64,000 nt of DNA from the NCBI RefSeq assembly GCF_054482525.1, contig NZ_JBTHVG010000003.1; one strand, written 5' to 3'. Origin of the DNA: a plasmid. Every line of letters starts with the position of its first letter. Positions within the stretch are counted from its first letter, which is position 1. Shown piece after piece: positions 25,479 to 47,903 of this stretch. The notes under the pieces are model-generated. The model saw nothing but the letters and a program-made list of their open reading frames with translations, did not search any database and was not told the origin of the DNA. The position numbers and the translations under genes were made by a program.

Positions 25479-26459
25479 ATGAGCCTGGAGAAACGTATGA
25501 GTTATGACGATTTGCCCTATTTTCGTGACCAGATTCTGGAACGTATCGACTCGCTTAAGTGTTTTCTTTCGAACACCCCCCCGCTGATGGCAAACCTGAT
25601 GACTGTCTCCACCGTATCTCGAACAGAAGAGCGACTGAAGCAGGTTAAACCCATCAGGGTTAGTGTTAAAGACGATGCTTCGGTTGAGGAAATTATTCAG
25701 GCACTTACTGACATCTGTGTGGATGACATAGAGTCATTAAGTCATGATTCCACCAAAGTGACCACTAAATACCCGGGTCTTATCATTGTCCCAGAAAGAG
25801 CAGATCTTCTCGAAAGCTTGATCACATCTATAAATGAAGCAAAAAATGATTTTGCTGCGGCAATGAGGCGTATCGATAATAAAAAGAATGTCCGTTTTGA
25901 TAAAGTGCACAAGAAGCTCCCGGGCCTTGTCGCTATGCACTCAACAAGAAATGTCCTTTTCATCAAGTCCCAGCTTAAAAAAGTTACTTTTTCATGGCGG
26001 CTAAACCGAAACCAGGAAGTTAAAACAGCAGAGCAACTTGTGAGTTTGTTGGAGCGCAGGAGAGCCTCAGAAGTAAAAAATGTAGCAACTACCAATTTGA
26101 ATGTCGTGTCTAATATCGATAAGGCTTTACACCGTCTTGAATTTCACCCACTGAAGCAGGGCGAATCTTATCGCCTTTGTCGAACTAACTCTTTCCCTGT
26201 TCCGATTGCTCACATTTTTGCATTTAGGCCTGAAGGCCAGGAACGAAACGGGAATAAATATGCTGAGACTGATTATTCAGTAGTAAAAGCATCCTTGCCC
26301 ATTTTCGCAGCAGGCAACATACCTCAATTAAAAACGCTCTCTGACTGGGCTCCTGAAAACAGCCAGGGCCCGTCCAACCAACGGAAGCTGAGCCTGAAAT
26401 ATACAGAACTCGTGCCGGGGGCTGAGCTGGGCATTTTCATTGTCAGCCCCGAAAATTAA
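25479..26459 (+). CDS. Tus-like (replication terminus-binding protein-like)
   Basis: Block FDKVHKKLPGLVAMHSTRNVLFI...FSWRLNR resembles the Tus block [23 protein letters not shown]...FGWANKH as I recall it; size about 320 aa. The real start may be the ATG at 25497 (GGAG RBS). Confidence 0.4.
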   Translation: MSLEKRMSYDDLPYFRDQILERIDSLKCFLSNTPPLMANLMTVSTVSRTEERLKQVKPIRVSVKDDASVEEIIQALTDICVDDIESLSHDSTKVTTKYPGLIIVPERADLLESLITSINEAKNDFAAAMRRIDNKKNVRFDKVHKKLPGLVAMHSTRNVLFIKSQLKKVTFSWRLNRNQEVKTAEQLVSLLERRRASEVKNVATTNLNVVSNIDKALHRLEFHPLKQGESYRLCRTNSFPVPIAHIFAFRPEGQERNGNKYAETDYSVVKASLPIFAAGNIPQLKTLSDWAPENSQGPSNQRKLSLKYTELVPGAELGIFIVSPEN

Positions 26460-26468
26460 GGAACAACA

Positions 26469-27374
26469 ATGCAATGGATTTCCACAGCCAGCCAGAAAAT
26501 CGATGAGCGTCTCTATCGTGTCTGCGTCTGGGTAAAAAAATATCACGCTGATGCGATTAACCGCGTTGTGCTTACCGTTGATCTAAGTAAAGCCCGACAT
26601 GACCCTGACGAGGACCAGGTAAGAGCAGAGCTGCTGTGCGGCCATTATTTTTTGCTTCGTAAGGAAAACGCTTCGAACTCTGCGCCTGACGATCAAAAGT
26701 TTGCTTTCCTGCCTGACGGGCGCAATCTGTGTTGGCAGACCGCAACCCCGGTGCTTCAGCATCTCCTGCTCAATAAAAACGTTCCTGAGTCGCTGAGGTT
26801 GCTTACGGACTACATACATATGCGTCTGGCCAGGCTGACAATGGTACCAATGTCCGGAACCATCATGAACGAGGCTCTGCTGGACAGCATCAGCTGGGTT
26901 AAGGTGGATTTGACCTACTTCTGGCAGTACGAACAGCTCAGCTCTCATCTGGGACCCATCCAGATAACCCACAAGGCACTAGTACGCTTCGGGCATCTGG
27001 CAAAGAATGATGAAAACTCCAGTGCCATAAGAATCCTGCGTCAGCGTCTGTCTTCAGAATTCTTACAAGAATTTCAGATGGCTGAGGATGAGCTAAAGCG
27101 CAAACAGTCGTTGATGGGCACCATGGACGTGAAAATGCTGTTTCATGCTCATTACCCCAGCCAGAAGATGCTGGTGGCTCGATATAAAAATGGTTGGGTA
27201 ATGGTGGATTGTTTTCTGTTTCATCATACCAAACCTAAGAAAAAAGCAAAAAACAAAACTACTGTGGCTAAGCCTCAACTTAAAGAGACTAAAAGAGAAG
27301 GGAGTGAAAATGGAACTGGGCATTATGGTGTGCATCGTGTTGTTACTCTCCGTGGCGGCGGCGTGGATCAGTAA
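26469..27374 (+). CDS. Hypothetical protein
   Basis: 301-aa ORF with a basic, lysine-rich C-terminal tail. Confidence 0.4.
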   Translation: MQWISTASQKIDERLYRVCVWVKKYHADAINRVVLTVDLSKARHDPDEDQVRAELLCGHYFLLRKENASNSAPDDQKFAFLPDGRNLCWQTATPVLQHLLLNKNVPESLRLLTDYIHMRLARLTMVPMSGTIMNEALLDSISWVKVDLTYFWQYEQLSSHLGPIQITHKALVRFGHLAKNDENSSAIRILRQRLSSEFLQEFQMAEDELKRKQSLMGTMDVKMLFHAHYPSQKMLVARYKNGWVMVDCFLFHHTKPKKKAKNKTTVAKPQLKETKREGSENGTGHYGVHRVVTLRGGGVDQ

Positions 27375-27654
27375 TAAGACAGTTGATTTGCTCGAAAGAT
27401 TCTATTTCAAGCGTCCGCTGAGCATGGAGTACGCGGCATGGCTACGTGTAATGTGTGCAGGCTTGTTATTGGTTTTTATTCAGGTTGCTCCACAATTTAC
27501 ACTTCTGTATACCCTTAAACTTGTCACGCTTATTAATCTTGGAATCCAGACAATGAAATTAAATGGCGTGTACAAATATAAAAGAACGGGAATTTTGCCT
27601 CCGGGAGGGGCACTCTCTAATCTCACCAGACTTAACCCGTTCAAGAAAAAATAA
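27310..27654 (+). CDS. Small hypothetical membrane protein
   Basis: AAGGGAG RBS 5 nt before the ATG at 27310; two predicted TM helices; overlaps the 3' end of the previous ORF in another frame. Confidence 0.3.
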   Translation: MELGIMVCIVLLLSVAAAWISNKTVDLLERFYFKRPLSMEYAAWLRVMCAGLLLVFIQVAPQFTLLYTLKLVTLINLGIQTMKLNGVYKYKRTGILPPGGALSNLTRLNPFKKK

Positions 27655-27675: not shown

Positions 27676-28860
27676 CTATTCATCAAAGGCATTTCGCATA
27701 AGCTTGATCATTGCTTTTTTACCAGCTTCAATATTACGAATGTAGCGCATAACCATTTCTTCATTCGACCAGTTCCCCATTTCCATAATCTGTGGTAGCG
27801 AGTAACCTTCAATATTTAGCTGTATCGCTCCGCCTACACGAACGCTGTGCCCTGTCCAGTAACGAGTTTTAGTCTCATTTGGATAAAGCTCATTCCACAT
27901 CTCTTTAAATGCTCGTAAAAGGGAATTTTTGCTGAGCATACCGGCATCGTCCACAGTGTCTTCTTCATCTTCATCGTTCAGAAGACTTTGCTTAGCACGA
28001 TAGGGTAGGTTATGCCTTTTAAGAAGTTCAGATAGCTCATTCCCCTTACTCCGAAGCTTCCAGCCGGGTGGCATATAGCCTGTATCATGGAAATTTACGG
28101 CCTGGAAAAGGAATTCATCCGGATGACTGTGCTGATCCATTTTCACGAGGTTCATCAATCTCAAGAGGCAGTTAGTTAACTGACGTGTCAGCCGGTAGGT
28201 AAGAAGTGTACTAATGTTCGTTTTTGTACGGTATACCGTCAGGTTAAATTCACCGGTCATACTATCCAGAGACAGATCTTTCAGACGTATACGTCGAATT
28301 TCGGATGAACGGAGCAGTGTTTCAAAGCCTGTCCAGATCAGGCACAGGTCACGAAGTTTACGAACTGAGTTTGTAGTACTGCGTAACTTTATCAGAGCCT
28401 TGAGATCGCCAATAAGAAAGGGAGTTGCCTGTTTAGTCGTCTTTCGCTTCCGGGCTTCCGATTGTTTTAAGGCTTCCAGCATGTACCATGCTTCAGACGT
28501 AATAATCCCGGGCAGGTTAAGCCCTTTTTTATGGATACTATTTAAGGCCTGAAGACAGCTGTTTATGCTGCTTCGTGACAATTTGCCTTCAAGATGCCCC
28601 ATAAACGCAAGCAGAGCGTCCTCAGACACGGGGAGCGAACTTACTGGCCAGTCTGTATGCAACCGGGCATTCGCCAGATACCATTCGTTCCATACTCGTA
28701 GCCAGTGCAGATAGGTTTTAGCAGTGTTGTATCTCAGATGGGAAAAGTAACGGATCAAGCGTGAAAGCTGTTTATCATGGTTGCCGAACGTTTCCAGCTG
28801 CTGATGCAATTCGCTTTCCGAAAACTGTCTGATCACTGATTGATTCTTCATCCTGCTCAC
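27676..28860 (-). CDS. Tyrosine site-specific recombinase/integrase
   Basis: C-terminal catalytic region HSVRVGGA...MRYIRN (H-x-x-R and catalytic Tyr); start may be the ATG at 28851 rather than the GTG at 28860. Confidence 0.8.
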   Translation of the reverse strand: MSRMKNQSVIRQFSESELHQQLETFGNHDKQLSRLIRYFSHLRYNTAKTYLHWLRVWNEWYLANARLHTDWPVSSLPVSEDALLAFMGHLEGKLSRSSINSCLQALNSIHKKGLNLPGIITSEAWYMLEALKQSEARKRKTTKQATPFLIGDLKALIKLRSTTNSVRKLRDLCLIWTGFETLLRSSEIRRIRLKDLSLDSMTGEFNLTVYRTKTNISTLLTYRLTRQLTNCLLRLMNLVKMDQHSHPDEFLFQAVNFHDTGYMPPGWKLRSKGNELSELLKRHNLPYRAKQSLLNDEDEEDTVDDAGMLSKNSLLRAFKEMWNELYPNETKTRYWTGHSVRVGGAIQLNIEGYSLPQIMEMGNWSNEEMVMRYIRNIEAGKKAMIKLMRNAFDE

Positions 28861-29021
28861 CGGGATACACTGGTTTTAATTACAGGTCATTTTAGCACTC
28901 ATGTACCTGGTTATGAACAGGGTGGAAACAACGAAAAAGGTTGTGAAATCGTTAGGCTTAAGTGAAAAATGATATTAAGATTATCCTTGGCCAGTTGAGG
29001 CCTGTCTAAAGAAGGTTGATT

Positions 29022-29234
29022 ATGTCTGACACAAAGCAGTCTTATTTAATGAAATTCCGTAAGTGTAGTTCGTTCGAAACGCTCGAAAAAGTATTTGAAA
29101 GGTTATGTGAAAAAAACTCGGGTGTCGCCTCTCTTGAAATTTCTGGTGCTTATGATCATCGTAAAGCCGAACTGACAATGAAAAAGTTATATGACAAAGT
29201 TCCTGCGAGTGTGTGGACCTTTGTTCGCGAGTAA
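29022..29234 (+). CDS. Small hypothetical protein
   Basis: GAAGG RBS before the ATG at 29022; about 70 aa. Confidence 0.3.
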   Translation: MSDTKQSYLMKFRKCSSFETLEKVFERLCEKNSGVASLEISGAYDHRKAELTMKKLYDKVPASVWTFVRE

Positions 29235-29594
29235 TTATTAATATTGGCACAACAAAAAGACTGTGCCTAGATTTGAAAATAGTTTATGCCCCTTTCGGGG
29301 CTAAAGGCATTGTAATAGCCTGTCTTTTAAAGTTGTTTATTAAGTTCGGAGAAAAACTTTAATCATAAGCCAAGCCCACTGCTAAATACATCCGATATTC
29401 TCCTTCATTTTATTAGAAGTGATAAAAGTTACTTTACCTAAACTTCTCTCTCAATATTTGTAAGGCTCTCATTTGATTTTTGTCAAACATTAATCTGGAA
29501 GACGGAAAAATCATTTCTTTTAATACGTTTTACAGAAATCCTCCTCCGTTATTTCGGATATAGTTTGAATCATTATCAAAAACGGGGTGCAGCC

Positions 29595-30677
29595 ATGCGT
29601 AAGAGTTATACATTTGGTATTCCATTTGGACTCCAGCGAGAATCAGGACTCTTTTTAGATATTACAGAGGTCAGCCGGGGTATTGACTGTAACTGCATCT
29701 GCCCCGCTTGCAAAACTGATCTGTTAGCAAAGCAGGGGGAGGTCAAGCTTTGGCATTTCTCACACAGTACAGCTGTAGCCGGTGACTGTGATGGTCTGAT
29801 GGAAGCCATCCGGGGAAAGATTATTGAAGTCATCAACGAGCACCAGGTTCTTGGTTTCCCAAATCTTCTCGCTGGCGACGATGGTGGGCCGGTTTCACTG
29901 AATGAGGTTAGTGGAAGCGGCAGTATGTTCGGAGGCACAGCTGATCTGTTCGTAAAGGTTAATGATTTATGTGTGGCCGTCTTTCTGGACAGGGATCGCA
30001 GCATTTCAGAGAAGTTAACCTTTGACCATCTTCATCCTTCCGAAAGAGTTGCCGCATTGCGTATCGATCTTCCTGATATTGAATATGAAATCAGTCAGGT
30101 GCAGCTCGGGCGACGTAAAACAACATACAGTGAGTGCATTGAAAGCCTGATCATTGATGAGACCAGTTCCCGGGAATGGCTATATCATCCATTAATGCAT
30201 GAACTTGAATCTGAACCTCTTCAGGAGTATCGGGGACGGGAGCCTTCAGAGGAAGGGCCTCTTCTTCAGCGCCTTGCTGACTGTAAGATGAAATTGCCTG
30301 ATATCCTTCCGGGCAGTCATAACGCGCTAGTCAGGTTACAGCAGGATACGATTGTATGTCTGTGTCGGTTAACGGTTCGGGCTTATGACATCGCTCAGAC
30401 CGATGAATTTCCTTTGTTCCTTCGCTATTTCAGGTTGCACTGCCTGGAAAACAGCGAACATGTCAGTTACGAAAGACTGATCTGCTGGCAGGAAATGATT
30501 TCAAAAACCCAGGAAGGCCAGTCCTTGACACAAAACGAACTTGAATATCTTCATGAGATTGTCCGCATCGCCTTTTACAATCACCGGCTTAACAATGTCA
30601 GTATTTCAGATGTTAAAAACCATGACACTGGAAAGAAGAGCGGCAGGGTAGAGTCACAAAATTATTCACTTTTATAA
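29595..30677 (+). CDS. CoiA-like zinc-finger protein, solitary
   Basis: N-terminal motif CNCICPACKTDLLAKQGEVKLWHFSH matches the C-x-C-P-x-C-K...HF-x-H signature also seen in the protein at 60984..61970; start moved to the ATG at 29595. Confidence 0.5.
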   Translation: MRKSYTFGIPFGLQRESGLFLDITEVSRGIDCNCICPACKTDLLAKQGEVKLWHFSHSTAVAGDCDGLMEAIRGKIIEVINEHQVLGFPNLLAGDDGGPVSLNEVSGSGSMFGGTADLFVKVNDLCVAVFLDRDRSISEKLTFDHLHPSERVAALRIDLPDIEYEISQVQLGRRKTTYSECIESLIIDETSSREWLYHPLMHELESEPLQEYRGREPSEEGPLLQRLADCKMKLPDILPGSHNALVRLQQDTIVCLCRLTVRAYDIAQTDEFPLFLRYFRLHCLENSEHVSYERLICWQEMISKTQEGQSLTQNELEYLHEIVRIAFYNHRLNNVSISDVKNHDTGKKSGRVESQNYSLL

Positions 30678-30843
30678 ATAACTTGGGCTTTGCGCATTAA
30701 ACCCTTGCCGCAGGCGGTGTACCGCATATCCGGCACAGACAGTCAGTTTTTTCTGGCAGCTTAAATTTGACACTGCTTAATATAGTGATTCATTAAACAG
30801 GTTCAGTATGCTGCCAGAACGTTTTAGTCGTAATGGGCGTCCG

Positions 30844-32343
30844 TTAGTTTTCAACTAACTGAACGACGACCAGCCTGCCGCCTTCCTCCTTTGACAGAAC
30901 AAACTGAGCGTTATTCGTCAGTTCAATTTTTTCCCCAATGGCAATCTGTCGTTTATCCGGTAATGACATAAGCCCATTTATGCCTTCATTTACTAACCAC
31001 CACTGATCGTTATGGAAAACAAAATACCCAACTCGTTTCCTTTGTGCATCGGTTGTGCGCTCATTTGGCGCAATGAGGCGATTCACATGCCACGCATAGA
31101 TTGACTGCCCGCTCCACACCATCAACCGGTGGTCGTCAGGACGATAACTGCCTTCCTTTCGGGATGAATATAAATTTAGAACCGGTAATTTACCCTTGTA
31201 TGGCGTACCGCAGTAGGGACAAACCGGCTTTGTCTTACCTGAGAAAACGTACCATTTCTGTTCACACGCCTTGTTCTGGCAGGGCTGTATCAGATCGACT
31301 GTTTTAACCAGGGCACTTTCCCACTCATCGGCGGTCGGGCGTTTATTGGCATCGTGTAAGCCATCAATAAAGGCGCGTTCAAACAAAGGCGTCAAATAAG
31401 GGCCCATGATGGTGTAAGGAATTTTCTCCGGGTCAGCCCAGGGCAGTGAAAAGGAGGATAGCTGACTGACTTTGACTGCATTGCTTTTGTCTGTCGGATG
31501 TTCAATGAAGAGTGCCTTCTCACCCATAGATAAGGTCTCATCACGTACTTCATCCGACATGTCATGTATTTTTCCGCCACGTAGCGGATGACGGAAGAAC
31601 AGATACATGTAGATAAGCACCGACAGCGCATGACGGTCAGTAGAAATGCTTGGCAATACGCGGTTCGGATCCTCTTTGGAAAGATGGCTGGTTTTCACCA
31701 CTTCCGGAGCGATAAAATCCGGGGTGCCCACGACGTCGGGAGGATACTTTCCAGGGACAACCAGGCCGTCTACGTCAATGATGCAGGCATGTCCCATTTC
31801 TGGATCGATAAGCACGTTTTTATAGCTTAGATCGCTGTGACAGAGACCTGCCGCATGCATCCTTCTGACGGCTCTTGTTAGCAGCAGACAGACCTTGAGA
31901 TAGGTAAGCGTATTGCCTCGTTCACGTAGGTCGAGAAATTTATTCTGGTTGCTGGCGCTGGCAAACCATTTGCCTTCCTTTTCACGGCCTTTTATGCCAA
32001 GAAAATCATCGTTTTTAGAGCCGTATTTAAAGAAAAAGTAGCTTTTGTAGGTTGGAACCACGATGCCGATTTTATCCCCATGCTCAACAACGTGGGTCGG
32101 CCAGCAAAACAGGTCCTTCCAGTATTCACCTCCGGACTGGCCAAAAATGTTTTGCCTGTAGCGTCCGGTGATCATATCAATCCGATCCCGGGCCTGCTCG
32201 TTCTGCGGTTTATGATAAAAAGCGACGACGTATGATTTATCAGGCGAGAAGTAAACATCCTTCATCGAGCCCGAACCAATTACCTCGTCAACATACTGGA
32301 CTGTTTCGCCGTCCTTTGTTTTGCACGTAACAATATTTGCCAT
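30844..32343 (-). CDS. Ser/Thr protein kinase with C-terminal zinc ribbon and FHA-like domain
   Basis: Gly loop GSGSMKDVY, catalytic loop CHSDLSYKNVLI, DVDG, APEVV; Zn ribbon CQNKAC...CPYC; start set at the ATG at 32343 (GGTGA RBS). The ORF-track start at 32397 would overlap the phosphatase gene. Confidence 0.85.
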   Translation of the reverse strand: MANIVTCKTKDGETVQYVDEVIGSGSMKDVYFSPDKSYVVAFYHKPQNEQARDRIDMITGRYRQNIFGQSGGEYWKDLFCWPTHVVEHGDKIGIVVPTYKSYFFFKYGSKNDDFLGIKGREKEGKWFASASNQNKFLDLRERGNTLTYLKVCLLLTRAVRRMHAAGLCHSDLSYKNVLIDPEMGHACIIDVDGLVVPGKYPPDVVGTPDFIAPEVVKTSHLSKEDPNRVLPSISTDRHALSVLIYMYLFFRHPLRGGKIHDMSDEVRDETLSMGEKALFIEHPTDKSNAVKVSQLSSFSLPWADPEKIPYTIMGPYLTPLFERAFIDGLHDANKRPTADEWESALVKTVDLIQPCQNKACEQKWYVFSGKTKPVCPYCGTPYKGKLPVLNLYSSRKEGSYRPDDHRLMVWSGQSIYAWHVNRLIAPNERTTDAQRKRVGYFVFHNDQWWLVNEGINGLMSLPDKRQIAIGEKIELTNNAQFVLSKEEGGRLVVVQLVEN

Positions 32344-32368
32344 ATTGATCACCGAAGAAGCGTATCCC

Positions 32369-34009
32369 TTACCACAACACCGCAATAGTGCGGTCATCGT
32401 GGTTCCCTGTGGAGAAAAAGTTAAGCCAGTCGCCTAACCTCTCAGGCGCAATACTGGCGTCTGTAAGGACAGGGATGAGCTCATCAAGGAGACGGGTCCA
32501 TTTTTCGTCACTGCGAAGCCCGTTATCTGTCTCAAACAGAGGGTCTGATACGCCATCTGTCATGAGGATCAAGTGAGATACATCATTCCATTTACCCACG
32601 CTGATGCGGCCGCTAAACGAGGGGTCTGCGATAATGCTCTGGTCAAGAAAGCGGGTTTGTCCTGCGTATTCTCCGCTATCGGGATTTCCCAGTATCCTGA
32701 CTTTACCGGAAGGGCTGTATGCACCTATCGCACCATCACCAAGCCAGAATGCAGCCGCAAACAGCTCGTTATCAGTTCGTAGCGCTACAGTTGCCAGTAG
32801 GGTTGTTGAATAGGATTTCACAGGTTGTTCTGCACAAATGGCTTCGTTCTGGATACTGTTGACCGCGAGCGTAGCTGCCTGTTTAAAATGATGAAGCATG
32901 GCGTTTATGGTTGCCTGCTGATCGCTCCCTTCCCACGCCGTGATGTGCTGCTTTAGATGGACGCCTTTCAAACCACTGAGCTGATTGAAAAGGTAATCGC
33001 CAGCCGTTTGGACTGCAATCCGGGAGCCTTCCCGGGAATTTACCGCACTACCGGCCCCGTCTGCGACCAGCATGACAGACCATCCTGTTTCCTGGCAGTG
33101 GTTGATATAGAAGTCGTCATCTCTGAAGCTCCCGGCATGCTCATGAGATCGTCCCCGGCGACTGGCGGCAGCAATACGTATGTCACCCCTGACCAGGCCA
33201 GCAGCGTCCAGATGGGACTTAGGGTAGGAAGCGTCTGCTGGTGGCTCTACCACCTTCCACAGGCTTCTCGGATCGGGATTGACTATAAAAAGCTGTTTTG
33301 TTTCGCATTCGTCGTGCGAAGCGCATGACCAGAGTACTGAAAGCTCTATATCGCCGCTTTCGGTGGGTGTACCTGTCAGCAACTTATGCTCTTTGTCAAA
33401 GGTCAGGCCAATGTTCCTGGGAAAGACAACGTCCCTGACAGTAGCCTGCTGGCCCTCATCCAGAACTATAGCAACCGGCGAAGAGAAACGTTCGCCTGCG
33501 CGGGCGTTGGGAATAACTATTTTAGCTCTCGGGGGAACGGCAGGTGGCACAGCTAATCCGGCCCGCTGCTGGCCTGTCGGTATCTGCCCGGGTTTTAATA
33601 CCAGGGAAGACAGGTTTTCGTCTTCCCTCTGTGCTGGTTTATCAAATTCGTAATAAGGCATCAGCTTCCAGAACGGAGGATGAGGTTCATTTTCTGGCAG
33701 GGGTTGCAGTAATGGTGTATCGGTAGCGTCAATGCCCGGGTTATCAGCATCACTTACGACCGTTTGTTGCTGATCGGAAAGGCTGGATGCTGACGAGGGG
33801 GCGATCTCTGCGTCGTTATAACCTTCGCTAACCCGCGCAGATAAACCCTGTGCAAGGCTCTCAATCCGCTCTTTAAGCCGCATAATCTCTTCAGTAAGGG
33901 AAGGGTCGTGCGATAGAAGAAAAAGCCGCTCACCTTCTACAGGGTGGCCCAGCTCAGACAGCACTAAGCGGATAATCTTCTCTTCAAGTAAAACATTTTG
34001 CGACATCAA
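32369..34009 (-). CDS. PP2C-family Ser/Thr phosphatase with long N-terminal extension
   Basis: PP2C motifs VMLVADGAGS and LILMTDGVSDPL; its ATG overlaps the stop of the upstream vWA gene (ATGA). Confidence 0.85.
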   Translation of the reverse strand: MMSQNVLLEEKIIRLVLSELGHPVEGERLFLLSHDPSLTEEIMRLKERIESLAQGLSARVSEGYNDAEIAPSSASSLSDQQQTVVSDADNPGIDATDTPLLQPLPENEPHPPFWKLMPYYEFDKPAQREDENLSSLVLKPGQIPTGQQRAGLAVPPAVPPRAKIVIPNARAGERFSSPVAIVLDEGQQATVRDVVFPRNIGLTFDKEHKLLTGTPTESGDIELSVLWSCASHDECETKQLFIVNPDPRSLWKVVEPPADASYPKSHLDAAGLVRGDIRIAAASRRGRSHEHAGSFRDDDFYINHCQETGWSVMLVADGAGSAVNSREGSRIAVQTAGDYLFNQLSGLKGVHLKQHITAWEGSDQQATINAMLHHFKQAATLAVNSIQNEAICAEQPVKSYSTTLLATVALRTDNELFAAAFWLGDGAIGAYSPSGKVRILGNPDSGEYAGQTRFLDQSIIADPSFSGRISVGKWNDVSHLILMTDGVSDPLFETDNGLRSDEKWTRLLDELIPVLTDASIAPERLGDWLNFFSTGNHDDRTIAVLW

Positions 34010-35046
34010 CCTCTCCCTCTGTTTACGTCGAAGTTAGTGTTTCCGCCATCATTGCTGAATGACAGACCTGTTTCACACCACGGGCAGATCACGTCATCCG
34101 GGCCGTCAATGCACAGCAATTTTCCGCATGAGCACAGGGCAAACGCACTGGCATTACCGCAGTGAGGGCAACCCGGTACGCCATGCAGTTCGCTGGTGTT
34201 TACCTGCAAACCGGTAGCGGTGGCATCTGACCATGCAAAATAGTCTTCATCGATGGGATAGCATCCGGCAATATTAAAGCTGTTCAGGTTCAGGCTGAAA
34301 TCGAGCCCGGAAATCCTTGCTGGTGGCCGTTCATACTTCATCAGATACGGACGACGGGTCTTGCTGCAACGGCCGGTAAGCGTAACGCAGTTTTCGTCGT
34401 ACGCTTTTACTGGCTCGTCCTTGGCCAGCCGGACTATGTATTCAGTCTGGCTGAGCTCAGGTTGTTTGTCGTCTCCGACGCTGCGGCTGTGCGCCGTAAC
34501 CGAGGCTGTGATCCATTTGATGAAGCGGGTAAAGTCCCCTTCCTGAGACTCGGTGAACAGCATGACATTCTCTGTCAGTTGCCGCAGGGTATTCAGGTCC
34601 GCTGACGGCCCCAGGCCAACGGCAATGAGATTCACTTTACTCGCGTAGTGATCCTTCCAGCGCTTCACTTCTGCGGTTGTGTCGTCAGTCGGACGTCCGT
34701 CGGTAAGGAGATACACGACGGGTTTCCAGTCGCCTTTAGCCTCATGAGTGGTTTTTCTGACCTGGGTATCAATTTGTACGGTCAGCTCACGCAATGCGGC
34801 CCCAAGGCTCGTACCGCCGCCAACGGGAAGGCGGGGAGGGTAGAACGAGGCAATTTCGTGAAGAGGTACAATCGTACGGGCTACACCGGCAAATGCGATT
34901 ACCGAAACCCAGGCTGTTTCAAGTGCGTGTGGATCCTTTCTTAAATCTCCGATGATCATTTGCAGACCATCAGTCATTTTTTTCAGGTTTTCACCAATCA
35001 TGGACTCTGAACAGTCCAGGACAAAAAACACGGGAAGGCGTCTCAT
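34006..35046 (-). CDS. TerY-like vWA protein with C-terminal zinc ribbon
   Basis: MRRLPVFFVLDCSESM MIDAS motif; C-terminal CPHC...CSC...CPWC; start moved to the ATG at 35046 with a GAGG RBS. Confidence 0.8.
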   Translation of the reverse strand: MRRLPVFFVLDCSESMIGENLKKMTDGLQMIIGDLRKDPHALETAWVSVIAFAGVARTIVPLHEIASFYPPRLPVGGGTSLGAALRELTVQIDTQVRKTTHEAKGDWKPVVYLLTDGRPTDDTTAEVKRWKDHYASKVNLIAVGLGPSADLNTLRQLTENVMLFTESQEGDFTRFIKWITASVTAHSRSVGDDKQPELSQTEYIVRLAKDEPVKAYDENCVTLTGRCSKTRRPYLMKYERPPARISGLDFSLNLNSFNIAGCYPIDEDYFAWSDATATGLQVNTSELHGVPGCPHCGNASAFALCSCGKLLCIDGPDDVICPWCETGLSFSNDGGNTNFDVNRGRG

Positions 35047-35131
35047 AATTTTCCTCGTACGGCTGGTACGGCCAGCAGAAAACGTTGCTGTACAGAAAGG
35101 TGCTGCCCGGAAAGCAGCACCTTTCTGTCTG

Positions 35132-35770
35132 TCAGAGCACCAGCTGGATTTCTGGTGGAGGAGGGGGAAGGGTATCAGTTCCGTTATTGATCCCCGCGCT
35201 TGTGCTGCCGGAAGACACGCTGGCCGATACCCATTTAAAGAAACCTGCAAACGCGGTTGAATCTAGCGTCTCCAGAGACACAACCTTATCGGTAAGCTGT
35301 TTTAAGTGCTCATGGCCTGCTTTAGGACCAACGGCGCAGGCAATGATGGATCCGAATCCCCGGCCGCGAATCGCTTTTACCGCTTCACCGTACGCCAGGG
35401 CATCAGAAGGGGTTCCATCAGTCATCAGGAATACCAGAGGACGCCAGTCTCCTTTTGTATCACCATCTGAGCGACGTACATCCCGTTCAACACACTGCAT
35501 CAGACATTCAAGGGCAGCACCGGTGAACGTCCCGCCTGCGCTTGGCACAACGATGTCAGAAAACTGGAAGTCTTCCAGCGGCGTGAGAGGAATGAACTCA
35601 CGCGCCTCATTGTCATAGGTGATAATGGAGATATGAACGCTTTCGAGGGCGTAGGGATCCTGGCGAAGAGCGCTAAGCATCGCCTGAATTCCAACGTTAA
35701 CGGAATGGATGGACTCACCGCGCATCGAGCCGGATGTGTCGATAACAAGGTAAACAGGCAGGCGGCGCAT
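35132..35770 (-). CDS. terY: TerY-family vWA protein
   Basis: MRRLPVYLVIDTSGSM MIDAS motif, about 212 aa; its ATG at 35770 overlaps the terX stop (ATGA). Confidence 0.8.
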   Translation of the reverse strand: MRRLPVYLVIDTSGSMRGESIHSVNVGIQAMLSALRQDPYALESVHISIITYDNEAREFIPLTPLEDFQFSDIVVPSAGGTFTGAALECLMQCVERDVRRSDGDTKGDWRPLVFLMTDGTPSDALAYGEAVKAIRGRGFGSIIACAVGPKAGHEHLKQLTDKVVSLETLDSTAFAGFFKWVSASVSSGSTSAGINNGTDTLPPPPPEIQLVL

Positions 35771-36411
35771 CACATGTAATTCCTCAGGTGCGAGACAAAC
35801 GAATCTGATTCTGAAGGCTCACCAATTGCCCTGAGTTTCCAGCCTGTAGCCTCGCGTATCAGCTCGGCAAAAACCATGGAGCGCTGGCTGGCGAAGGCGG
35901 GTCCGCCAGAAAGATCGAATCGTGCCATTTCAATATTACGGGCATCTACTGCCCGGATGAAGGCATTCTGAACTTTACCAAAGTGCTGCTGGAGCTTTTC
36001 ACCATTGTAGATCTGAACGATGAACACAATTTTCTCGTACTGAGCGTCAAGGGAATTCAGGCGCACAATAATTTGCTCATCGTCACCATCACCGGCTCCG
36101 GTTCGGTTATCGCCCGTCAGCCAGATATTTCCTGACTTATGGCGAAGGCTGTTGAAAAAGATGATATCGCCATTCACAAGCGTTGGTTTACCATTTTCCA
36201 CATTGCCGAGATCGGTCACCTTTCCGGCTGAATTACACAGGAAAGCGATCACATCAAGGTCGTATTCTTCTTCTTTTTTACCAAAGATCCCGCCGAGGAA
36301 ACCTTTCTTTTCCTCATTAATATCCCAACCCAGGCCGATAGTAACGGACGAGAGATCGTATTCATTTTTTTTCAGGCTTACGCCCTGGCCTTTGCTCAGA
36401 CTGACAGACAT
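35770..36411 (-). CDS. terX: TerD-family protein TerX
   Basis: TerD-domain hallmarks [13 protein letters not shown] and GDNRTGAGDGDDE; 213 aa; sits between two terY genes. Confidence 0.85.
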   Translation of the reverse strand: MSVSLSKGQGVSLKKNEYDLSSVTIGLGWDINEEKKGFLGGIFGKKEEEYDLDVIAFLCNSAGKVTDLGNVENGKPTLVNGDIIFFNSLRHKSGNIWLTGDNRTGAGDGDDEQIIVRLNSLDAQYEKIVFIVQIYNGEKLQQHFGKVQNAFIRAVDARNIEMARFDLSGGPAFASQRSMVFAELIREATGWKLRAIGEPSESDSFVSHLRNYM

Positions 36412-36433
36412 GACATCCCCTTAATTAATAAAA

Positions 36434-37072
36434 TTATAAGACCACGTTTACTTCTGGCGGCGGCGGTGGCAGGTCTTCAAGACCGATCACTTCTTTTTTG
36501 CTGGACTCCACTTTCTGACTGCCTACCGAAATGCTCGCACTGACCCATTTAAAGAAAGCTTTAATCGTCGAACTGTCAGCTGTATCGAGCTGAACCACGA
36601 TTTCAGTGATTTCTTTGAGGACGCTGGTATCGGCATCATGCCCGGCTGCACATGCCACAACAACGCCGGTTCTGGCCGCTTTAAAGTCATTCAGGCCTTT
36701 ACGCCAGTCATCATTCGGACTTCCATCCGTCATCAGGAATACAAGGGGACGCCAGTCACCTTTAGTGTCAGCCGTCGTTTTCTGTACTTCTTTGGCAATG
36801 GAGCTGGCCGTCAGGGTAAGCGCTTCGCCAAGAGAGGTGGTGCCGCTGGCTGTTAGTGCTGGCATCTGGAAACTCAGGAGGTCTGTCAGGGGGACTGCCT
36901 GTCGGGCTGAAGAATCAAAGGTGATCACTGACACGTAAGCCGTTTCGAGTGCATACGGATCCTGTTTCAGCGTGGTAAGCAGCGTCTGAACGCCATTCTT
37001 AACCGCTTCGATAGGCTCTCCGTGCATAGAGCCGGACGTGTCGAGTAGCAGATATACGGGTAAGCGTCTCAA
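36434..37072 (-). CDS. terY: TerY-family vWA protein
   Basis: (M)RRLPVYLLLDTSGSM; start moved to the TTG at 37072 with an AAGGAA RBS 7 nt upstream. The ORF-track start at 37153 adds an unsupported N-terminal extension. Confidence 0.75.
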   Translation of the reverse strand: MRRLPVYLLLDTSGSMHGEPIEAVKNGVQTLLTTLKQDPYALETAYVSVITFDSSARQAVPLTDLLSFQMPALTASGTTSLGEALTLTASSIAKEVQKTTADTKGDWRPLVFLMTDGSPNDDWRKGLNDFKAARTGVVVACAAGHDADTSVLKEITEIVVQLDTADSSTIKAFFKWVSASISVGSQKVESSKKEVIGLEDLPPPPPEVNVVL

Positions 37073-37496
37073 ATGTAATTCCTTCTTAAGAGATCGGAAG
37101 AGGAGAGTAGTTTCAGGAAGAGGCCAGAGTTTGTAGATTTGATAAAACGGCACGACATCTGTCGGGTGGAGATTAAATACTCAGAAGCGGCATTAAAGAA
37201 ATAAGTTAACCACCATTGAATTACCGACATGTGAATGGCCTCTTATCAGAGAAAAAAATTCAGACCGTACTGGAATATAAATTTCTGAAAAAAACTCCGG
37301 CAAAAATAAACTTTCTTATGTATGAAAATCATCATACATCACAGATCTGCATGAATGGAGTGTAAATCGCCCAAAGATTGATGTGTAGCACAAGAGGATG
37401 TCAAGACACCAGGTTTTGTAGGCAGAAAGGCGCTGCTGACATTGCGGGAGGAGAATAGATCAAAACTCCGTCACGCAGATACAGAGGTGAAATATG

Positions 37497-37520
37497 ACAA
37501 AACCGGGGTTTTCACCCCGG
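37497..37520 (-). terminator. Rho-independent terminator after terW
   Basis: CCGGGG-TTTTCA-CCCCGG (plus-strand reading) with a T-run on the minus strand just downstream of the terW stop. Confidence 0.6.
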
Positions 37521-37534
37521 TCTGAGATTTAGCG

Positions 37535-38002
37535 TCAGGACTTTTTAGCGCTGTATTCTTTTATCAGTTCATCAACGGAGTGCAGAGCCAGCTTCTCTAC
37601 CGCTTCACTTCGGGTCGAGCCACTCAGCGCAGCCAGACGGTCAATTTTTCTTAAAATCCGCATGCGTAGCGATAATGACACGGCTGTTTTTTTATCCTTA
37701 TCGAGTACGACCTTCCCTGTGGACTCACCGGTTTTCAGTTCAGCATTCTGTGCGAGCGCTTCATTCATCCGGCGAAGGGTCTTTTTATCCAGCTGGCCCG
37801 GATTAACGAGATGGTAGGAATGACCTGCCTTGCTGTATTTGATCTCCGCAGAATATGACTCGCGTAGCTCTTTGAGTGCCCGGGTTAATGTCGGCTCTGA
37901 GCATTCCAGACTGGTTATAATGTCGGCAGCGGAAACGGGCTTGCCGGTGCCCAGTAAGTTGGCAAGCTTAAAAATCCGGGCCTGTCTGGTATTTAATTGC
38001 AT
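37535..38002 (-). CDS. terW: TerW, DNA-binding protein of the ter locus
   Basis: 155 aa, HTH-like segment SAADIITSLECSEPTLTRALKELRES; size and position match terW of plasmid and island ter loci. Confidence 0.75.
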   Translation of the reverse strand: MQLNTRQARIFKLANLLGTGKPVSAADIITSLECSEPTLTRALKELRESYSAEIKYSKAGHSYHLVNPGQLDKKTLRRMNEALAQNAELKTGESTGKVVLDKDKKTAVSLSLRMRILRKIDRLAALSGSTRSEAVEKLALHSVDELIKEYSAKKS

Positions 38003-38019
38003 CGTAAGATTTAGCCTGC

Positions 38020-39228
38020 TTAAAGGGTTAGTGGTTCAATAGGCTGAAAAATGAAGGTACTGCTCATCTTTCGAATAACCGGGTGATCGCCTAACGCTTC
38101 AACCGGATCAATGTGTTCTAAGCCTGCAAAATTTACTGACGACATCTGGCTGCGACTGCATTTGCAGGACAGGATATACTCATCCTCCAGATAGCCGGTC
38201 CGCTTACTGACCCGTTGCGTAAAGCCTGACACAATCACGTTGTCGAACGGTAGCGTATGTAAAACGATACCGACCAGGCGGAACAAGCAGCCATGGACGT
38301 GGCGGGCATAGTTTTCGCGTACGGCTTTTTGCGTCATGGCTTTTTCCGTCAGCTCCGTGCCCCGGGCATTAACGCCGTAAATCTTATCAGGGAAATCTTC
38401 AATCTCAGCTAAATCAACATCCAGCAGGACTGCTGATAGCTCCGGCTTTACTTCAAATGCAACAAGCGTTTCACGCGGCCATTCAGTTTCTGCCAGCACA
38501 CCCGCCAGGTATGATTCGAAAAACGCGGCGTCTGTCCGGAACTGCTGCCGGGCATCTGCCTGAGCCGTGGCGAGCCGTTTTTCATGTTCTTCAGCCTCAA
38601 ACTTCCAGTTTGCATACTGTTCGGCCCAGGCCGTCCGTTGTTGCTGGTACCGGTGCTGTCGAAGGGTATTCTCACGCTCCACATCAATCAGCTCCTGCTG
38701 CCACCGGCGAAGATTTTCGGCGTGGCGCTCAGCTTTAGCTGATTCCGATTCAAACCATTTACCCAGAAAACTAATGCCTTCGCTCTCGGCAGGCTTTTCC
38801 GGCAATGCAAGATAGTCTGGCTTTTCTGGACGCACCGGTGCCGGAACCTGAAAAGGCGACGTTCTGTTATGCAGGTATACTGCTTCCAGCTCTGCCCAGC
38901 TGATGCCTGTTTTAGGATCCGGCGTCAGCTCGTGAATATTACGGATTGCGGTCACCGCTGACATGAGATCAGCGGCTTCCTCCTCAAGCGCCTGTCTGAG
39001 CCCCGGGTCGGTAGCCGTCCGGTTCCCACCTCCGGAACGCGCGGCCCGATCAAGCCGGGTACGGTAACTCAGCCCGGTACCGGGCAAGCCCAGATTGGCA
39101 TAGGTCCCCCGGCTTCCAAAAGAAACGGAAGCACCTCTCGGCCCGACACTCAGGCTCGGTGCACCGTTACTCAGGTTGAGGCGAACACCAGGAATAATGT
39201 TGATCGACTTTCTGAATCTGAACCCCAT
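38020..39228 (-). CDS. ter-associated protein of unknown function
   Basis: Starts MGFRFRKSINIIPGVRLNLS (DUF4236-like as I recall it); AAGGA RBS; last gene of the biosynthetic operon. Confidence 0.5.
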   Translation of the reverse strand: MGFRFRKSINIIPGVRLNLSNGAPSLSVGPRGASVSFGSRGTYANLGLPGTGLSYRTRLDRAARSGGGNRTATDPGLRQALEEEAADLMSAVTAIRNIHELTPDPKTGISWAELEAVYLHNRTSPFQVPAPVRPEKPDYLALPEKPAESEGISFLGKWFESESAKAERHAENLRRWQQELIDVERENTLRQHRYQQQRTAWAEQYANWKFEAEEHEKRLATAQADARQQFRTDAAFFESYLAGVLAETEWPRETLVAFEVKPELSAVLLDVDLAEIEDFPDKIYGVNARGTELTEKAMTQKAVRENYARHVHGCLFRLVGIVLHTLPFDNVIVSGFTQRVSKRTGYLEDEYILSCKCSRSQMSSVNFAGLEHIDPVEALGDHPVIRKMSSTFIFQPIEPLTL

Positions 39229-39238
39229 TATGATTTCC

Positions 39239-40195
39239 TTAATGATGCTGGGTCACGGTAAGTAATCTGATTCCATCAGCGCTTTGCTCGTTCTGTAACC
39301 CATAAAAACGAGCTCTGTCCAGAATGCCAGCCGCCCAGCGGCGATGTGTGGCGGGTTCACACATTGCTCCCTGCGACTTAAACACGGCCTGGGTAGAGTT
39401 CAGGATCCGCAGAGCGTCAGAATGCTCACCCTGAGTGACCATCAGCGCGTTTTGAATGACCTCTATCTGACCCGGGTGAATGGCCGTTTTCCCAACAAGC
39501 CCATGTGCCATATCAAGAGCCAGCTCTCTGGCCATTACGGCATGATCGTCAATATGCTCACATACGGGCGCGGTCAGGGCAAAATCACGCGGGCCGAAGA
39601 CCGAAACGAGCATTTTGATGACGTAGCCCATCGGGCTGTCATACAGCGTCAGGTCCCGGGGACGGCGAAGCGACACAACGTTCATAAGATCGTTGCCGCC
39701 GATTCGAAGCGCAATAATGCGGTCGTGGCAGGGATGTTCCACCAGACGGGTGGCCAGCTCCCGCATCTGAACCACGTCAAAGACGTCTTCTGTTTCCAGC
39801 GTTGGCATCATGCACAGGTGAGTCCCGCCCATGATATCCCACCATTCAGCTAACGAACTGAGGGTAAATTTCGGCAACACAAACCCGTCGACAGCGGAAA
39901 GATCATAATGCGCTTTTAACCATCTGCCCATTTCGGCATGCCGGGGGCGAATGAACACCAGAGGCCAGTCATTTTTACCCAGGCTATGCATGCTGTTACT
40001 GAGCTCGTGCAGCAGGTGCTCCAGATTTTTGAGGGCGACGGGGATGTCTGCTTCACTGACAGCATCCTCCAGGCAAATCACCAGAGAGCGCAAACCCGGG
40101 ATTTTCCCGTGCAGGACGGCATCAGCAATATCTTCCCGTGTTGCAGGCATGTATAGCGTGGCTCCCAGATTCCAGGGAGAAAGACGATTTTTCAT
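39239..40195 (-). CDS. HpcH/HpaI aldolase / citrate lyase beta-like TIM-barrel enzyme
   Basis: Citrate-lyase-beta-like sequence (…LVICLEDAV…) ; its ATG at 40195 overlaps the stop of the upstream PRTase-like gene (ATGA). Confidence 0.65.
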   Translation of the reverse strand: MKNRLSPWNLGATLYMPATREDIADAVLHGKIPGLRSLVICLEDAVSEADIPVALKNLEHLLHELSNSMHSLGKNDWPLVFIRPRHAEMGRWLKAHYDLSAVDGFVLPKFTLSSLAEWWDIMGGTHLCMMPTLETEDVFDVVQMRELATRLVEHPCHDRIIALRIGGNDLMNVVSLRRPRDLTLYDSPMGYVIKMLVSVFGPRDFALTAPVCEHIDDHAVMARELALDMAHGLVGKTAIHPGQIEVIQNALMVTQGEHSDALRILNSTQAVFKSQGAMCEPATHRRWAAGILDRARFYGLQNEQSADGIRLLTVTQHH

Positions 40196-41274
40196 CAAAG
40201 TACCTTCTTGATAATGGTTACAGCCCGATACTGGCCGAGGGTTCCCCCCATTTCTGTAACAACTATTCCCTTTTCACGAGCAAGCCCTACAAGCAAGGCA
40301 ACGTCCGAGTCGTCAATAGAACGCACAAATACATGGTCCGGTACCCGACGTAATACAGCCCGGGTTGCTTCAGCAATACCGGGTTTTATACGATTGACGC
40401 TGTCCACTTTAAATTCATCGGCCAGGAACGCGATAACGTCGCGACTTGTCTGCCATAAGACCCGGGCTGACTCCGTATTCCAGCTCAGGGGAGCGAGGGA
40501 TGACGGGGTTAACTTCTTACGGAAATGAGCGACGGTATCGACAAGCATCCGGCTGCATTCGAATTCACTGAGATGCTCGCAAACCATGCACCCGTGTAAT
40601 CCTTCAGAGGACCACACTGACCGGGAGATCAGGCCTGACACCGGCGCACCCATGATGCCAAAAGGAATGAGCCAGTCATCATCACTGGCTGCAAGCCAGG
40701 AGCAGCCACAGGGATCGGCCAGGACAACCAGTCGCGGCTGCTCAGGATAGCCCGGGCGATCTTTCAGTGCGCGTACAAGCTCTCCGGTAATTGCGCCTTT
40801 ACCTGTCCATCCGTCAACAAAGACAATACCGCTGGTACCATGCCGCTCTTCAATGACGTCGAGGGCTGCACCGTCAATTCCACGATCCCGGATAATGCTG
40901 ATACCGTAATGCCATGAGGTTTTCCCCATGTCACGCAGGGCCTGGTGCAGCATAACGCCGAGCGGCACGCCAGCCCTGACAAGACTGGCCAGTACAATGG
41001 GCTCATCACCAAAGCGTTTGGCCAGAGCAATAGCGAGCTGTGTGACTTCTTTTGCAAGTCTCTCTGCGCCCCGATCCAGCGCCCGGTGAAACAAATCAAG
41101 ATGCCATTGTGTTGGCGCTGGCTCCTGACTGAGCATGTCCGAATAATGTTTCTTCCCTGACTGAATCAGCTCTTCTTTTTGCTCAACCGGCGTCATCTCA
41201 ATGACAACCGGCTTTAGCAGAAATTCCACGTCACCGGGCTGGTATGAGCCGGTAAATGTGTCATGTGGCTGCAT
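40195..41274 (-). CDS. Phosphoribosyltransferase-like protein (ter-associated)
   Basis: PRPP-binding-like segment GIVFVDGWTGKGAITGEL; ATG at 41274 lies 1 nt after the HAD stop. Confidence 0.55.
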   Translation of the reverse strand: MQPHDTFTGSYQPGDVEFLLKPVVIEMTPVEQKEELIQSGKKHYSDMLSQEPAPTQWHLDLFHRALDRGAERLAKEVTQLAIALAKRFGDEPIVLASLVRAGVPLGVMLHQALRDMGKTSWHYGISIIRDRGIDGAALDVIEERHGTSGIVFVDGWTGKGAITGELVRALKDRPGYPEQPRLVVLADPCGCSWLAASDDDWLIPFGIMGAPVSGLISRSVWSSEGLHGCMVCEHLSEFECSRMLVDTVAHFRKKLTPSSLAPLSWNTESARVLWQTSRDVIAFLADEFKVDSVNRIKPGIAEATRAVLRRVPDHVFVRSIDDSDVALLVGLAREKGIVVTEMGGTLGQYRAVTIIKKVL

Positions 41275-41275
41275 T

Positions 41276-43184: not shown

Positions 43185-43193
43185 AAACACGCC

Positions 43194-46314: not shown

Positions 46315-46336
46315 CACAGCAACAAAGGAAACAGGT

Positions 46337-46792: not shown

Positions 46793-46814
46793 TCCACATC
46801 CCTAAGGGTAAAAT

Positions 46815-47855: not shown

Positions 47856-47903
47856 TCCCCTGAAGTGTTAACCTGAACAATTACTAATCGAAGAGGTTAT
47901 TTT

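Follow-up and report, generated by a model that had tools for sequence, protein, structure and literature searches.

What is a tyrosine recombinase gene doing 2 kb from the left border of a ter (tellurite-resistance) island – did the enzyme bring the island to the plasmid, or does it serve the plasmid itself? The gene lies in a 64,000-nucleotide stretch (the window) of an IncHI2 resistance plasmid with 99.98% identity to pNB4833-1. The original prediction was that the ter island had been acquired as a recombinase-associated module or, alternatively, that the recombinase is a plasmid multimer-resolution enzyme. We consider it likely that the recombinase is the IncHI2 ortholog of R0183 of plasmid R27, a backbone enzyme of the Cre type that most likely resolves plasmid dimers or multimers and is unconnected to ter.

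The gene itself is present as claimed. An open reading frame at 27676-28860 on the minus strand, with a conserved ATG at 28851 that yields a protein of 391 aa, matches the Pfam family Phage_integrase (E 1.8e-13). When PDB sequences are searched with phmmer the protein matches Cre only (E 2e-23), over residues 40-256 and 332-390 and hence in both domains. Its catalytic residues are R181, K210, H335, R338, W361 and Y370 (in Cre, R173, K201, H289, R292, W315 and Y324), and all six are invariant from the IncHI orthologs through Cre in an alignment of seven plasmid homologs – six IncHI-type and one from a Vibrio plasmid – with Cre (alignment A7). The structure model is of moderate quality only (pLDDT 71), and the best 33 matches of the predicted fold in a Foldseek search of the PDB are all Cre (E 3.5e-17); the runner-up structural class reaches E 5e-8, so that integron, Xer and lambda integrases match about nine orders of magnitude worse than Cre. 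The two-domain architecture, an N-terminal helical DNA-binding domain and a C-terminal catalytic domain, is nearest to that of Cre among solved recombinases, except that residues 254-303 form an IncHI-specific insertion of about 50 residues, placed with low confidence in the model, which Cre does not have. Sequence and predicted fold both indicate that positions 27676-28851 encode a Cre-type tyrosine recombinase with intact catalytic residues.

This gene belongs to an old, conserved block of IncHI-type plasmids. The first member of the block, on the plus strand at 25497..26459, encodes a plasmid-borne Tus-like replication-terminus-binding protein (Pfam Ter, PF05472, E 4.6e-19; its NCBIfam match falls under the curated cutoff), and is syntenic in R27, MGH83, pENVA, L013 and L014. 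It is followed by two overlapping plus-strand hypothetical genes (26469-27374 and 27310-27654, spanning 26469..27654) that are annotated genes orthologous to R27 R0185 and R0184 and for which a Pfam search returned no family; they converge on the recombinase gene, in an order kept in every IncHI-type relative examined. Beyond the minus-strand recombinase gene (27676..28851) and its conserved promoter and 5'UTR block lie two plus-strand genes. One (29022..29234; Pfam HHA, E 9e-19) is a backbone gene for an Hha/YmoA-family nucleoid-associated regulator, with 77% nucleotide identity to its R27 ortholog R0182, and the other (29595..30677; Pfam CoiA_N, E 6e-8) is a hypothetical gene for a CoiA_N-like protein of 360 aa. 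The CoiA-like gene is the final backbone gene ahead of an IncHI2-specific insert; it has about 71% nucleotide identity to R27 and MGH83, and a C-terminal comparison shows that the homology reaches the C-terminus (NYSLL and stop).

Synteny with the IncHI1 plasmid R27 and with pNDM-CIT-like plasmids is unbroken through all of these genes to position 30677, and orthologs with conserved backbone on both sides are found in the more distant pNDM-MAR-like plasmids as well. Collinear homology to R27 covers 20.5-30.6 kb of the window and picks up again at 52657, just ahead of a gene for a 130-aa protein (52686-53078), and MGH83 behaves likewise. The recombinase orthologs of IncHI1 and pNDM-CIT-like plasmids are 63-67% identical, 289 plasmids carry orthologs that are 60-80% identical, and the synteny persists in lineages with only 37-38% protein identity. 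A breakpoint in MGH83, 80 bp upstream of the recombinase gene, is accounted for by a Tn4371-like ICE carrying its own integrase. The recombinase is an ordinary conserved IncHI maintenance gene. The annotation of the R27 sequence already described R0183 as Cre-like, and its role in plasmid stability has been tested genetically (PMC4853401; bioRxiv 10.1101/2024.04.05.588136).

The ter module occupies positions 30843..50860 (GC 0.512) and contains kinase, PP2C, TerY-C and VWA/TerD genes, terW, a biosynthetic cluster and terZABCDEF. Exactly this span is 97.9% identical to an island in the chromosome of E. coli O104:H4. The left end of the module is identical in four unrelated contexts (alignment A4), and in the three others – the O104:H4 chromosome, an IncF plasmid and a Klebsiella oxytoca plasmid – the recombinase is not adjacent, so that acquisition of ter as a recombinase-associated module finds no support. 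In the K. oxytoca plasmid the right end of ter is the terF stop (50794). The pNDM-CIT-like plasmids have an empty junction at this locus, with ter about 90 kb off. In the IncHI2 plasmid the module is enclosed in a larger specific insert (30678-52656), which it shares with a 165-bp linker (30678..30842) on its left and, on its right, a segment with four small hypothetical ORFs (50861..52656; GC 0.437). The linker resembles neither the sequence after the CoiA-like gene in R27 and MGH83 nor the flanks of ter elsewhere, and in local alignment it scores the same as shuffled controls. Two features proposed for the ter cluster, a composition of its own and horizontal exchange, were borne out: it is a separately exchanged module within the insert, and nothing indicates that the recombinase put it there.

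A shift in composition had been placed by eye at 27.6-30.8 kb, with the recombinase sitting exactly at the junction of backbone and island. The rise is real, and a one-step fit over 8-44 kb takes GC from 0.40 to 0.52 with best breakpoints at 29.7-31.2 kb, but its placement was wrong. There are two steps, one at about 24-25 kb, within the backbone and found in R27 too, and one at 30.84 kb. By gene, GC3 also climbs twice, from 0.27-0.36 (17.9-22.9 kb) to 0.38-0.53 from the Tus-like to the CoiA-like gene (24.4-30.7 kb) and to 0.52-0.62 in ter (from 30844). An equal rise, from about 0.40 to 0.48-0.51 over the Tus, recombinase and CoiA-like genes, is seen in R27 and MGH83, where the locus lacks ter, so the first step is a property of the backbone. 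The interval in question is itself backbone-like: the recombinase gene has a GC of 0.447 (GC3 0.467), beside 0.443 for the Tus-like and 0.462 for the CoiA-like neighbour, and the dinucleotide delta* of 27676-30843 is 24.5 against the backbone (sampling noise 29 +/- 5) and 42.6 against ter. Its right end, 30843, is the exact left end of the ter module, but the recombinase is not at that border, which lies 2 kb further on.

The edges of the island were compared for repeats. Neither a k-mer comparison nor a repeat search found att-like direct repeats flanking it, and the latter gave short imperfect matches only. Segments 27.4-31.0 and 50.7-52.8 kb have seven 12-mers in common, a number that exceeds the shuffle expectation (about 1.3) only slightly, and none of them is at a border. 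A 12-mer at 28906, in the recombinase promoter region, has an inverted copy at 52378, and since the similarity does not extend it was judged a chance match; an 11-mer common to 30753 and 51346 was set aside with its second copy lying within an inverted repeat just after the stop of a small gene, possibly a terminator hairpin.

How, then, are the recombinase and the island related? If the recombinase were the integrase of the ter island, an enzyme that put ter into the plasmid as a circular element and moves along with it, its position close to the left border, the true GC step at 30.84 kb and the discrete left end of ter in four contexts would all fit. We nevertheless regard this as highly implausible, and the island-free relatives effectively refute it: the recombinase is at the same site in R27-like IncHI1, pNDM-CIT-like and pNDM-MAR-like plasmids, and some 290 relatives have it without an adjacent ter island. 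Moreover, the recombinase gene is not within the insert but is flanked on either side by conserved backbone genes, with hha and the CoiA-like gene between it and the insert; other ter carriers are without it, the att-like repeats were not found, and chromosomal ter islands have tRNA-targeting integrases of their own together with IS elements (PMC8193136). There is no link between the recombinase and ter. A different history, in which ter is ancestral to IncHI plasmids and was lost in the R27-like clade and relocated in others, rather than acquired by IncHI2 here, is unlikely. Against it, IncHI2 and pNDM-CIT-like plasmids carry ter at different backbone positions with no common flanks, ter identity (80-98%, with 97.9% to the chromosome) far exceeds that of the backbone (64-73%), and its GC and dinucleotide signature are unlike those of the backbone; the R27 and MGH83 junction holds other conserved sequence with no scar of a ter deletion.

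A variant on this theme makes the recombinase and a lox-shaped dyad after the CoiA-like gene a cargo-capture locus through which ter entered IncHI2. R27 has, after its CoiA-like gene, a small ORF bracketed by two related 22-nt dyads (18 of the 22 bases in common). A single perfect 13-6-13 dyad occurs there in pNDM-CIT-like plasmids, and its outer arms covary with those of R27; in IncHI2 the left end of ter falls exactly within a TAATG-N6-CGTTA motif (30831-30846). Natural variation gives no support to the dyads as a recombination site, with no precise excision or replacement between those of R27 among about 200 IncHI1 plasmids; the 3.4-kb insert of p733-MDR bears inverted repeats of the Tn3 type and is bordered by a target duplication of 5 bp. 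The motif at 30831-30846 was likewise rejected as a hybrid att site, the adjoining linker being homologous to neither R27 nor MGH83. Half of it is the kinase stop-codon region, found in every ter carrier, and dyads of such shape are common terminator-like hairpins, and we give cargo capture scarcely any credence.

Where the recombinase might act is suggested by the block upstream of its gene, conserved at 28852..28938 on the minus strand (alignments A2 and A5 and a promoter scan). The predicted promoter has a -35 of TTCATA (28917-28912), a 17-nt spacer and a TG-extended -10 of TAAAAT (28894-28889). Past the -10 and ahead of the ribosome-binding site is a deeply conserved element, CTGTAATTAAAACCAGT (28885-28869), in which dyad arms of 4-5 bp flank an 8-bp AT-rich centre. 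The motif CTGKNNNTAAAANCAGT is present in exactly one copy per locus, always within this upstream block. We propose the element as the best candidate for the recombinase site, overlapping the recombinase promoter and 5'UTR, where it may be an operator or a crossover core; with a dyad of only 4-5 bp it could also be a plain operator or a part of the promoter. Within several kb of the recombinase there is no convincing conserved 13-N6-8-13 dyad of lox-like form. A dyad at 29240-29273 was discarded because it has three mismatches and sits after the hha stop, and is probably a terminator; the R27 xrs, a dif-like site and an E. coli-type Ter core are all absent from the window.

The case for a function in plasmid maintenance derives from genetics of R0183, an ortholog of 63% identity on a different plasmid, with plasmid loss, not multimer resolution itself, as the readout. 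When R0183 is deleted singly R27 shows no instability (PMC4853401); the deletion derivative is stable in a wild-type host and 'readily lost' in xerC, xerD or ftsK-ATPase mutants (bioRxiv 10.1101/2024.04.05.588136). Because the loss phenotype appears only with XerC, XerD or FtsK disabled, a redundant role in dimer resolution is indicated, and the second option of the original prediction, a multimer-resolution enzyme, agrees with these results. By analogy, the IncHI2 enzyme would have the same function. Like Cre, the recombinase would bind as monomers to a short dyad site, one per plasmid copy; the two sites of a dimer would synapse in a tetramer; and Tyr370 would cleave and rejoin the strands via a Holliday junction, converting the dimer to monomers. 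The recombinase would run parallel to the XerCD/FtsK system of the host, whose site on the plasmid is a separate xrs.

Alternatively, the backbone recombinase could have a main role other than dimer resolution, such as resolving cointegrates or concatemers after conjugation, site-specific integration and excision (with the chromosome or another replicon), or regulating neighbours such as hha. The lack of a stability phenotype when the R27 ortholog alone is deleted and of a classical resolution site near the gene are in keeping with this, overlap of the conserved element with the promoter fits regulation, and Cre has multiple roles in P1 (discussed in bioRxiv 10.1101/2024.04.05.588136). However, the synthetic instability of R27 with xerC, xerD or ftsK mutants is what is expected of redundant dimer resolution, and the catalytic residues are all under selection across very divergent lineages, so that catalysis matters, beyond binding alone; the single element per plasmid also speaks against the inversion or excision of cassettes. 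Another main role is distinctly improbable, and we favour resolution of dimers or multimers by a recombinase of the IncHI backbone.

These results bear on annotation, as the label of 'island integrase' for a recombinase beside a resistance island is wrong here. The recombinase instead belongs to the machinery that keeps IncHI plasmids stable, and these plasmids are major carriers of resistance to multiple drugs, colistin and heavy metals; the element in the recombinase promoter region provides a concrete site candidate for a widespread Cre-type enzyme. Because the recombinase backs up XerCD/FtsK, disabling both together might destabilise IncHI plasmids. The ter module, for its part, moves by other routes among IncHI2 plasmids, other plasmids and the chromosomes of E. 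coli.

Among known systems R27 R0183 is closest, being an ortholog of equal length with the same neighbours (Tus R0186, R0185, R0184 and Hha R0182) and a conserved upstream promoter block; R27 differs in having IS1-RepFIA-IS1 between hha and the CoiA-like gene, and no ter island downstream. Cre/loxP of P1 resembles the IncHI system in that both domains align (about 23-28% identity), the six catalytic residues are common to both, Cre is the best structural match and the enzyme is encoded on a low-copy plasmid-type replicon, where Cre helps to resolve dimers (discussed in bioRxiv 10.1101/2024.04.05.588136). It differs in that no 34-bp lox-type site with 13-bp inverted arms lies near the IncHI gene, which is in a conjugative plasmid backbone beside a Tus homolog and not in a phage. 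XerCD/xrs (dif-like and FtsK-dependent) performs the same task, and in R27 each backs up the other, but the enzymes are a host-encoded pair and the 28-bp xrs of R27 is about 24 kb from R0183. ResD/rfsF of F and Rsd/crs of the Salmonella virulence plasmid are plasmid-encoded tyrosine-recombinase systems for multimer resolution, with mapped sites that adjoin the recombinase gene. As generally described, they too have a self-encoded tyrosine recombinase that aids stable inheritance of a large, low-copy enterobacterial plasmid; the function of the IncHI recombinase, in contrast, is redundant with XerCD/FtsK. SpLE1/TAI-type elements at tRNA genes combine ter operons with tyrosine recombinases (PMC8193136). 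Their P4-type integrases are encoded at the edge of the island, beside a tRNA att site, and move together with the island, whereas the IncHI recombinase lies outside the insert, occurs without ter and is of the Cre type.

The window derives from an IncHI2A conjugative resistance plasmid; its first 50 kb are 99.98% identical to Escherichia coli plasmid pNB4833-1 (NZ_CP118602.1), and the 26-34 kb region is found in ~1,070 plasmid records. Two single-base indels relative to pNB4833-1, at ~17.1-17.3 kb and ~23 kb, leave annotation coordinates carried over from that plasmid off by 1 bp between them. Transfer genes and a series of hypothetical genes precede a Tus-like protein gene (25497-26459), two small overlapping genes (26469-27654), a tyrosine recombinase gene (27676-28851, minus strand), hha (29022-29234), a 360 bp AT-rich spacer, and a CoiA_N-like gene (29595-30677; hereafter CoiA-like). 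A protein kinase gene (30844-32343) begins the tellurite-resistance (ter) region, which continues with a PP2C phosphatase, terW, a biosynthetic cluster and terZABCDEF, ending at 50795. Four small ORFs follow before the backbone resumes with a 130-aa gene (52686-53078), which has no Pfam match. Just past the insert are a hipB-like HTH gene and a HipA-family toxin gene (53682-55306), followed by two HNH endonuclease genes, a helicase gene, and H-NS at ~63.5 kb (63546-63950), so that with Hha at 29022 the plasmid encodes both partners of the Hha/H-NS silencing pair.

Farther left, five successive plus-strand hypothetical genes of 292-320 aa (17888-22894) have very low third-codon-position GC (GC3; 0.27-0.36); identity between the first and each of the other four is just 15-21%, which would make them very old paralogs at best. 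Two backbone intergenic regions, at 9656-9688 and 19783-19823, contain perfect or nearly perfect palindromes based on GGAGAAATCCC (4 matches versus 1.3 expected), possibly a shared terminator or REP-like element.

The recombinase and neighboring ORFs predicted at 27676-30843 are genuine, and the gene is an already known backbone Cre-type recombinase. A sequence search of solved structures matched Cre alone, across both domains (E 2e-23), and the six Cre catalytic residues – R181, K210, H335, R338, W361 and Y370 in the IncHI2 protein – do not vary when seven plasmid homologs are aligned to Cre. In Foldseek, the AlphaFold model (pLDDT 71) matches Cre-loxP complexes in the first 33 places (E 3.5e-17 to 5e-10), followed by integron integrase (5e-8), XerH (2.5e-7) and lambda Int (1e-5); an IncHI-specific insertion at residues 254-303 is poorly modelled.

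The original prediction placed the recombinase exactly at the junction of the ter island and suggested that the island had been acquired as a recombinase-associated module; it was right about the enzyme and a nearby compositional border and wrong in linking them. In IncHI1 plasmids of the R27 type the gene order is unchanged (Tus, R0185, R0184, a 63%-identical recombinase, Hha, CoiA-like) and ter does not occur at the locus; according to a comparative preprint, ter is missing throughout the R27-like clade (10.1101/334409). Plasmids related to pNDM-CIT share this block, and their junction is empty where the CoiA-like gene gives way to the 130-aa gene; one Klebsiella oxytoca plasmid has this empty junction at ~104 kb and ter at ~194-214 kb, adjoining dsbA and HAD genes. 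The Tus-to-CoiA-like arrangement is kept even in pENVA, p208355-IMP and pG4584, where the recombinase is only 37-38% identical. Because relatives keep the recombinase at the same site without ter, and no att-like repeats – the direct repeats expected of such an island – were found flanking the insert, we reject, on the terms set by the original prediction itself, a role for the enzyme as island integrase. The ter cluster forms a module of its own, with its border 2 kb from the recombinase.

The predicted compositional shift is real, although wrongly located. A one-step fit takes GC from 0.40 to 0.52 with best breakpoints at 29.7-31.2 kb, but gene by gene the rise occurs in two steps, with GC3 passing from 0.27-0.36 in the genes at 17.9-22.9 kb to 0.38-0.53 across the Tus-to-CoiA-like block and 0.52-0.62 in ter. 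The recombinase itself (GC 0.447) is similar to its backbone neighbors, and the dinucleotide signature of 27676-30843 lies at a distance of 42.6 from ter and 24.5 from the backbone, the latter inside backbone sampling noise (29 ± 5). R27 and the pNDM-CIT-like plasmid MGH83, both without ter at the locus, likewise climb from ~0.40 to 0.48-0.51 over Tus, the recombinase and the CoiA-like gene, which assigns the first step to the backbone; the second, at 30.84 kb, alone marks foreign DNA.

Nucleotide comparison shows R27 to be collinear with the window from 20.5 kb to 30599, interrupted only by IS2 and an IS1-RepFIA-IS1 segment, and to resume at 52657; MGH83 breaks off and resumes in the same way. 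Since the CoiA-like proteins are also homologous to their very last residues, the IncHI2-specific insert is 30678-52656. Identity to R27 is 89.5% over 52657-53399 (the 130-aa gene and downstream flank) and 64-77% over the rest of the shared backbone. The 30843-50860 part of the insert matches a chromosomal island of E. coli O104:H4 at 97.9% identity and sits there between IS21 and IS66 remnants; in O157-type islands the shared part is limited to 37471-49859. Four carriers whose left flanks are unrelated (IncHI2, the pNDM-CIT-like plasmid of K. oxytoca, an IncF plasmid of E. hormaechei, and the O104:H4 chromosome) all begin their homology over the ter module at the same nucleotide, 30843, a single base outside the stop codon of the kinase gene; in K. 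oxytoca the right end of the module is the terF stop codon. These ends indicate that the portable unit is simply the kinase-to-terF gene cluster; this recombinase adjoins it in none of the three other contexts. An IS21-family element abuts exactly that left end in two of the four.

The same comparative preprint holds that IncHI plasmids had ter ancestrally and that the R27-like ones later lost it (10.1101/334409). However, its backbone positions differ with no flanks in common, its identity of 80-98% is far above the backbone's 64-73%, its composition is distinct, and near-identical copies occur in IS-flanked chromosomal and IncF contexts, all of which favor horizontal exchange. This agrees with the E. 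coli literature, in which type 2 ter operons are on IncHI2 plasmids, the remaining types are on elements that are integrated at tRNA genes and encode integrases of their own, and IS elements are implicated in ter movement (PMC8193136). Dyads downstream of the CoiA-like gene prompted the idea of a lox-like cargo site. In R27, two related 22-nt dyads, GCTAAYG-TATGCNNN-CATTAG (18/22 bases identical; locus L005, 23518-23543 and 24060-24085), bracket a 158-aa ORF; in pNDM-CIT-like plasmids this position is occupied by a single perfect 13-6-13 dyad (MGH83 locus L008, 46483-46514) whose outer arms covary with those of R27, and in IncHI2 a TAATG-N6-CGTTA motif straddles 30843. We nonetheless consider a cargo site very improbable: dyads of this shape are common hairpins, the insertions beside them in relatives arose by other mechanisms (Tn3-type, ICE, group II intron), precise excision between them was not observed among ~200 IncHI1 plasmids, and the IncHI2 linker before the motif has no homology to R27 or pNDM-CIT sequence. 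Hairpin, terminator, operator, and recombination site are all candidate functions.

In relatives, the short recombinase-hha-CoiA-like stretch is a hot spot for insertions, having received a ~42-kb Tn4371-like ICE with its own integrase in MGH83 (L008, 1328-43930), a group II intron directly after the conserved ...CAGT in pENVA (L007, 6990-8890), the IS1-RepFIA-IS1 segment in R27 (L005, 25365-29190), and in p733-MDR (L011, 10146-13544) an element with Tn3-type IRs and SulP and Usp genes, flanked by a 5-bp target duplication (TATTA).

In the search for the recombinase's target site, no conserved lox-shaped dyad was found near the gene. A block within the hha-recombinase intergenic region is conserved far better than the coding sequence, and contains a sigma-70-like promoter (TTCATA, 17 nt, TG-extended TAAAAT) followed by CTGK-WWWTAAAA-MCAGT. 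This element, CTGKNNNTAAAANCAGT, lies at 28869-28885 (minus strand) between the -10 box and the recombinase ribosome-binding site, and recurs in R27 (L005, 29584-29600) and two distant relatives (L013, 2875-2891; L014, 2873-2889), being retained even in lineages with only 37-38% protein identity. There is exactly one copy per locus, always at this position, as would be expected of a resolution site and equally of an operator for autoregulation, and the element is a candidate for either role.

In all IncHI-type lineages examined, even where the recombinase is only 37% identical, a plasmid-encoded Tus homolog remains beside the Cre-type enzyme, and in pNDM-MAR-like plasmids a RepB initiator is only 2.5-4.6 kb away. 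The arrangement may be a maintenance module combining fork arrest with dimer resolution. A search of the window turned up neither a dif-like site nor an E. coli-type Ter core. The R27 ortholog, R0183, is labelled Cre-like in the R27 ORF list reprinted in the PMC4853401 supplement, and its deletion alone does not destabilize R27 (PMC4853401). R27 carries an FtsK-dependent, dif-like XerCD site (xrs), and without R0183 is stable in wild-type cells and 'readily lost' in hosts lacking XerC, XerD or FtsK ATPase activity (bioRxiv 10.1101/2024.04.05.588136); xrs is ~24 kb from R0183. Such genetics are characteristic of a pair of redundant dimer-resolution systems, and by analogy with this 63%-identical ortholog the IncHI2 gene most likely encodes a Cre-type resolvase of plasmid multimers, whose role in dimer resolution is probably likewise redundant.
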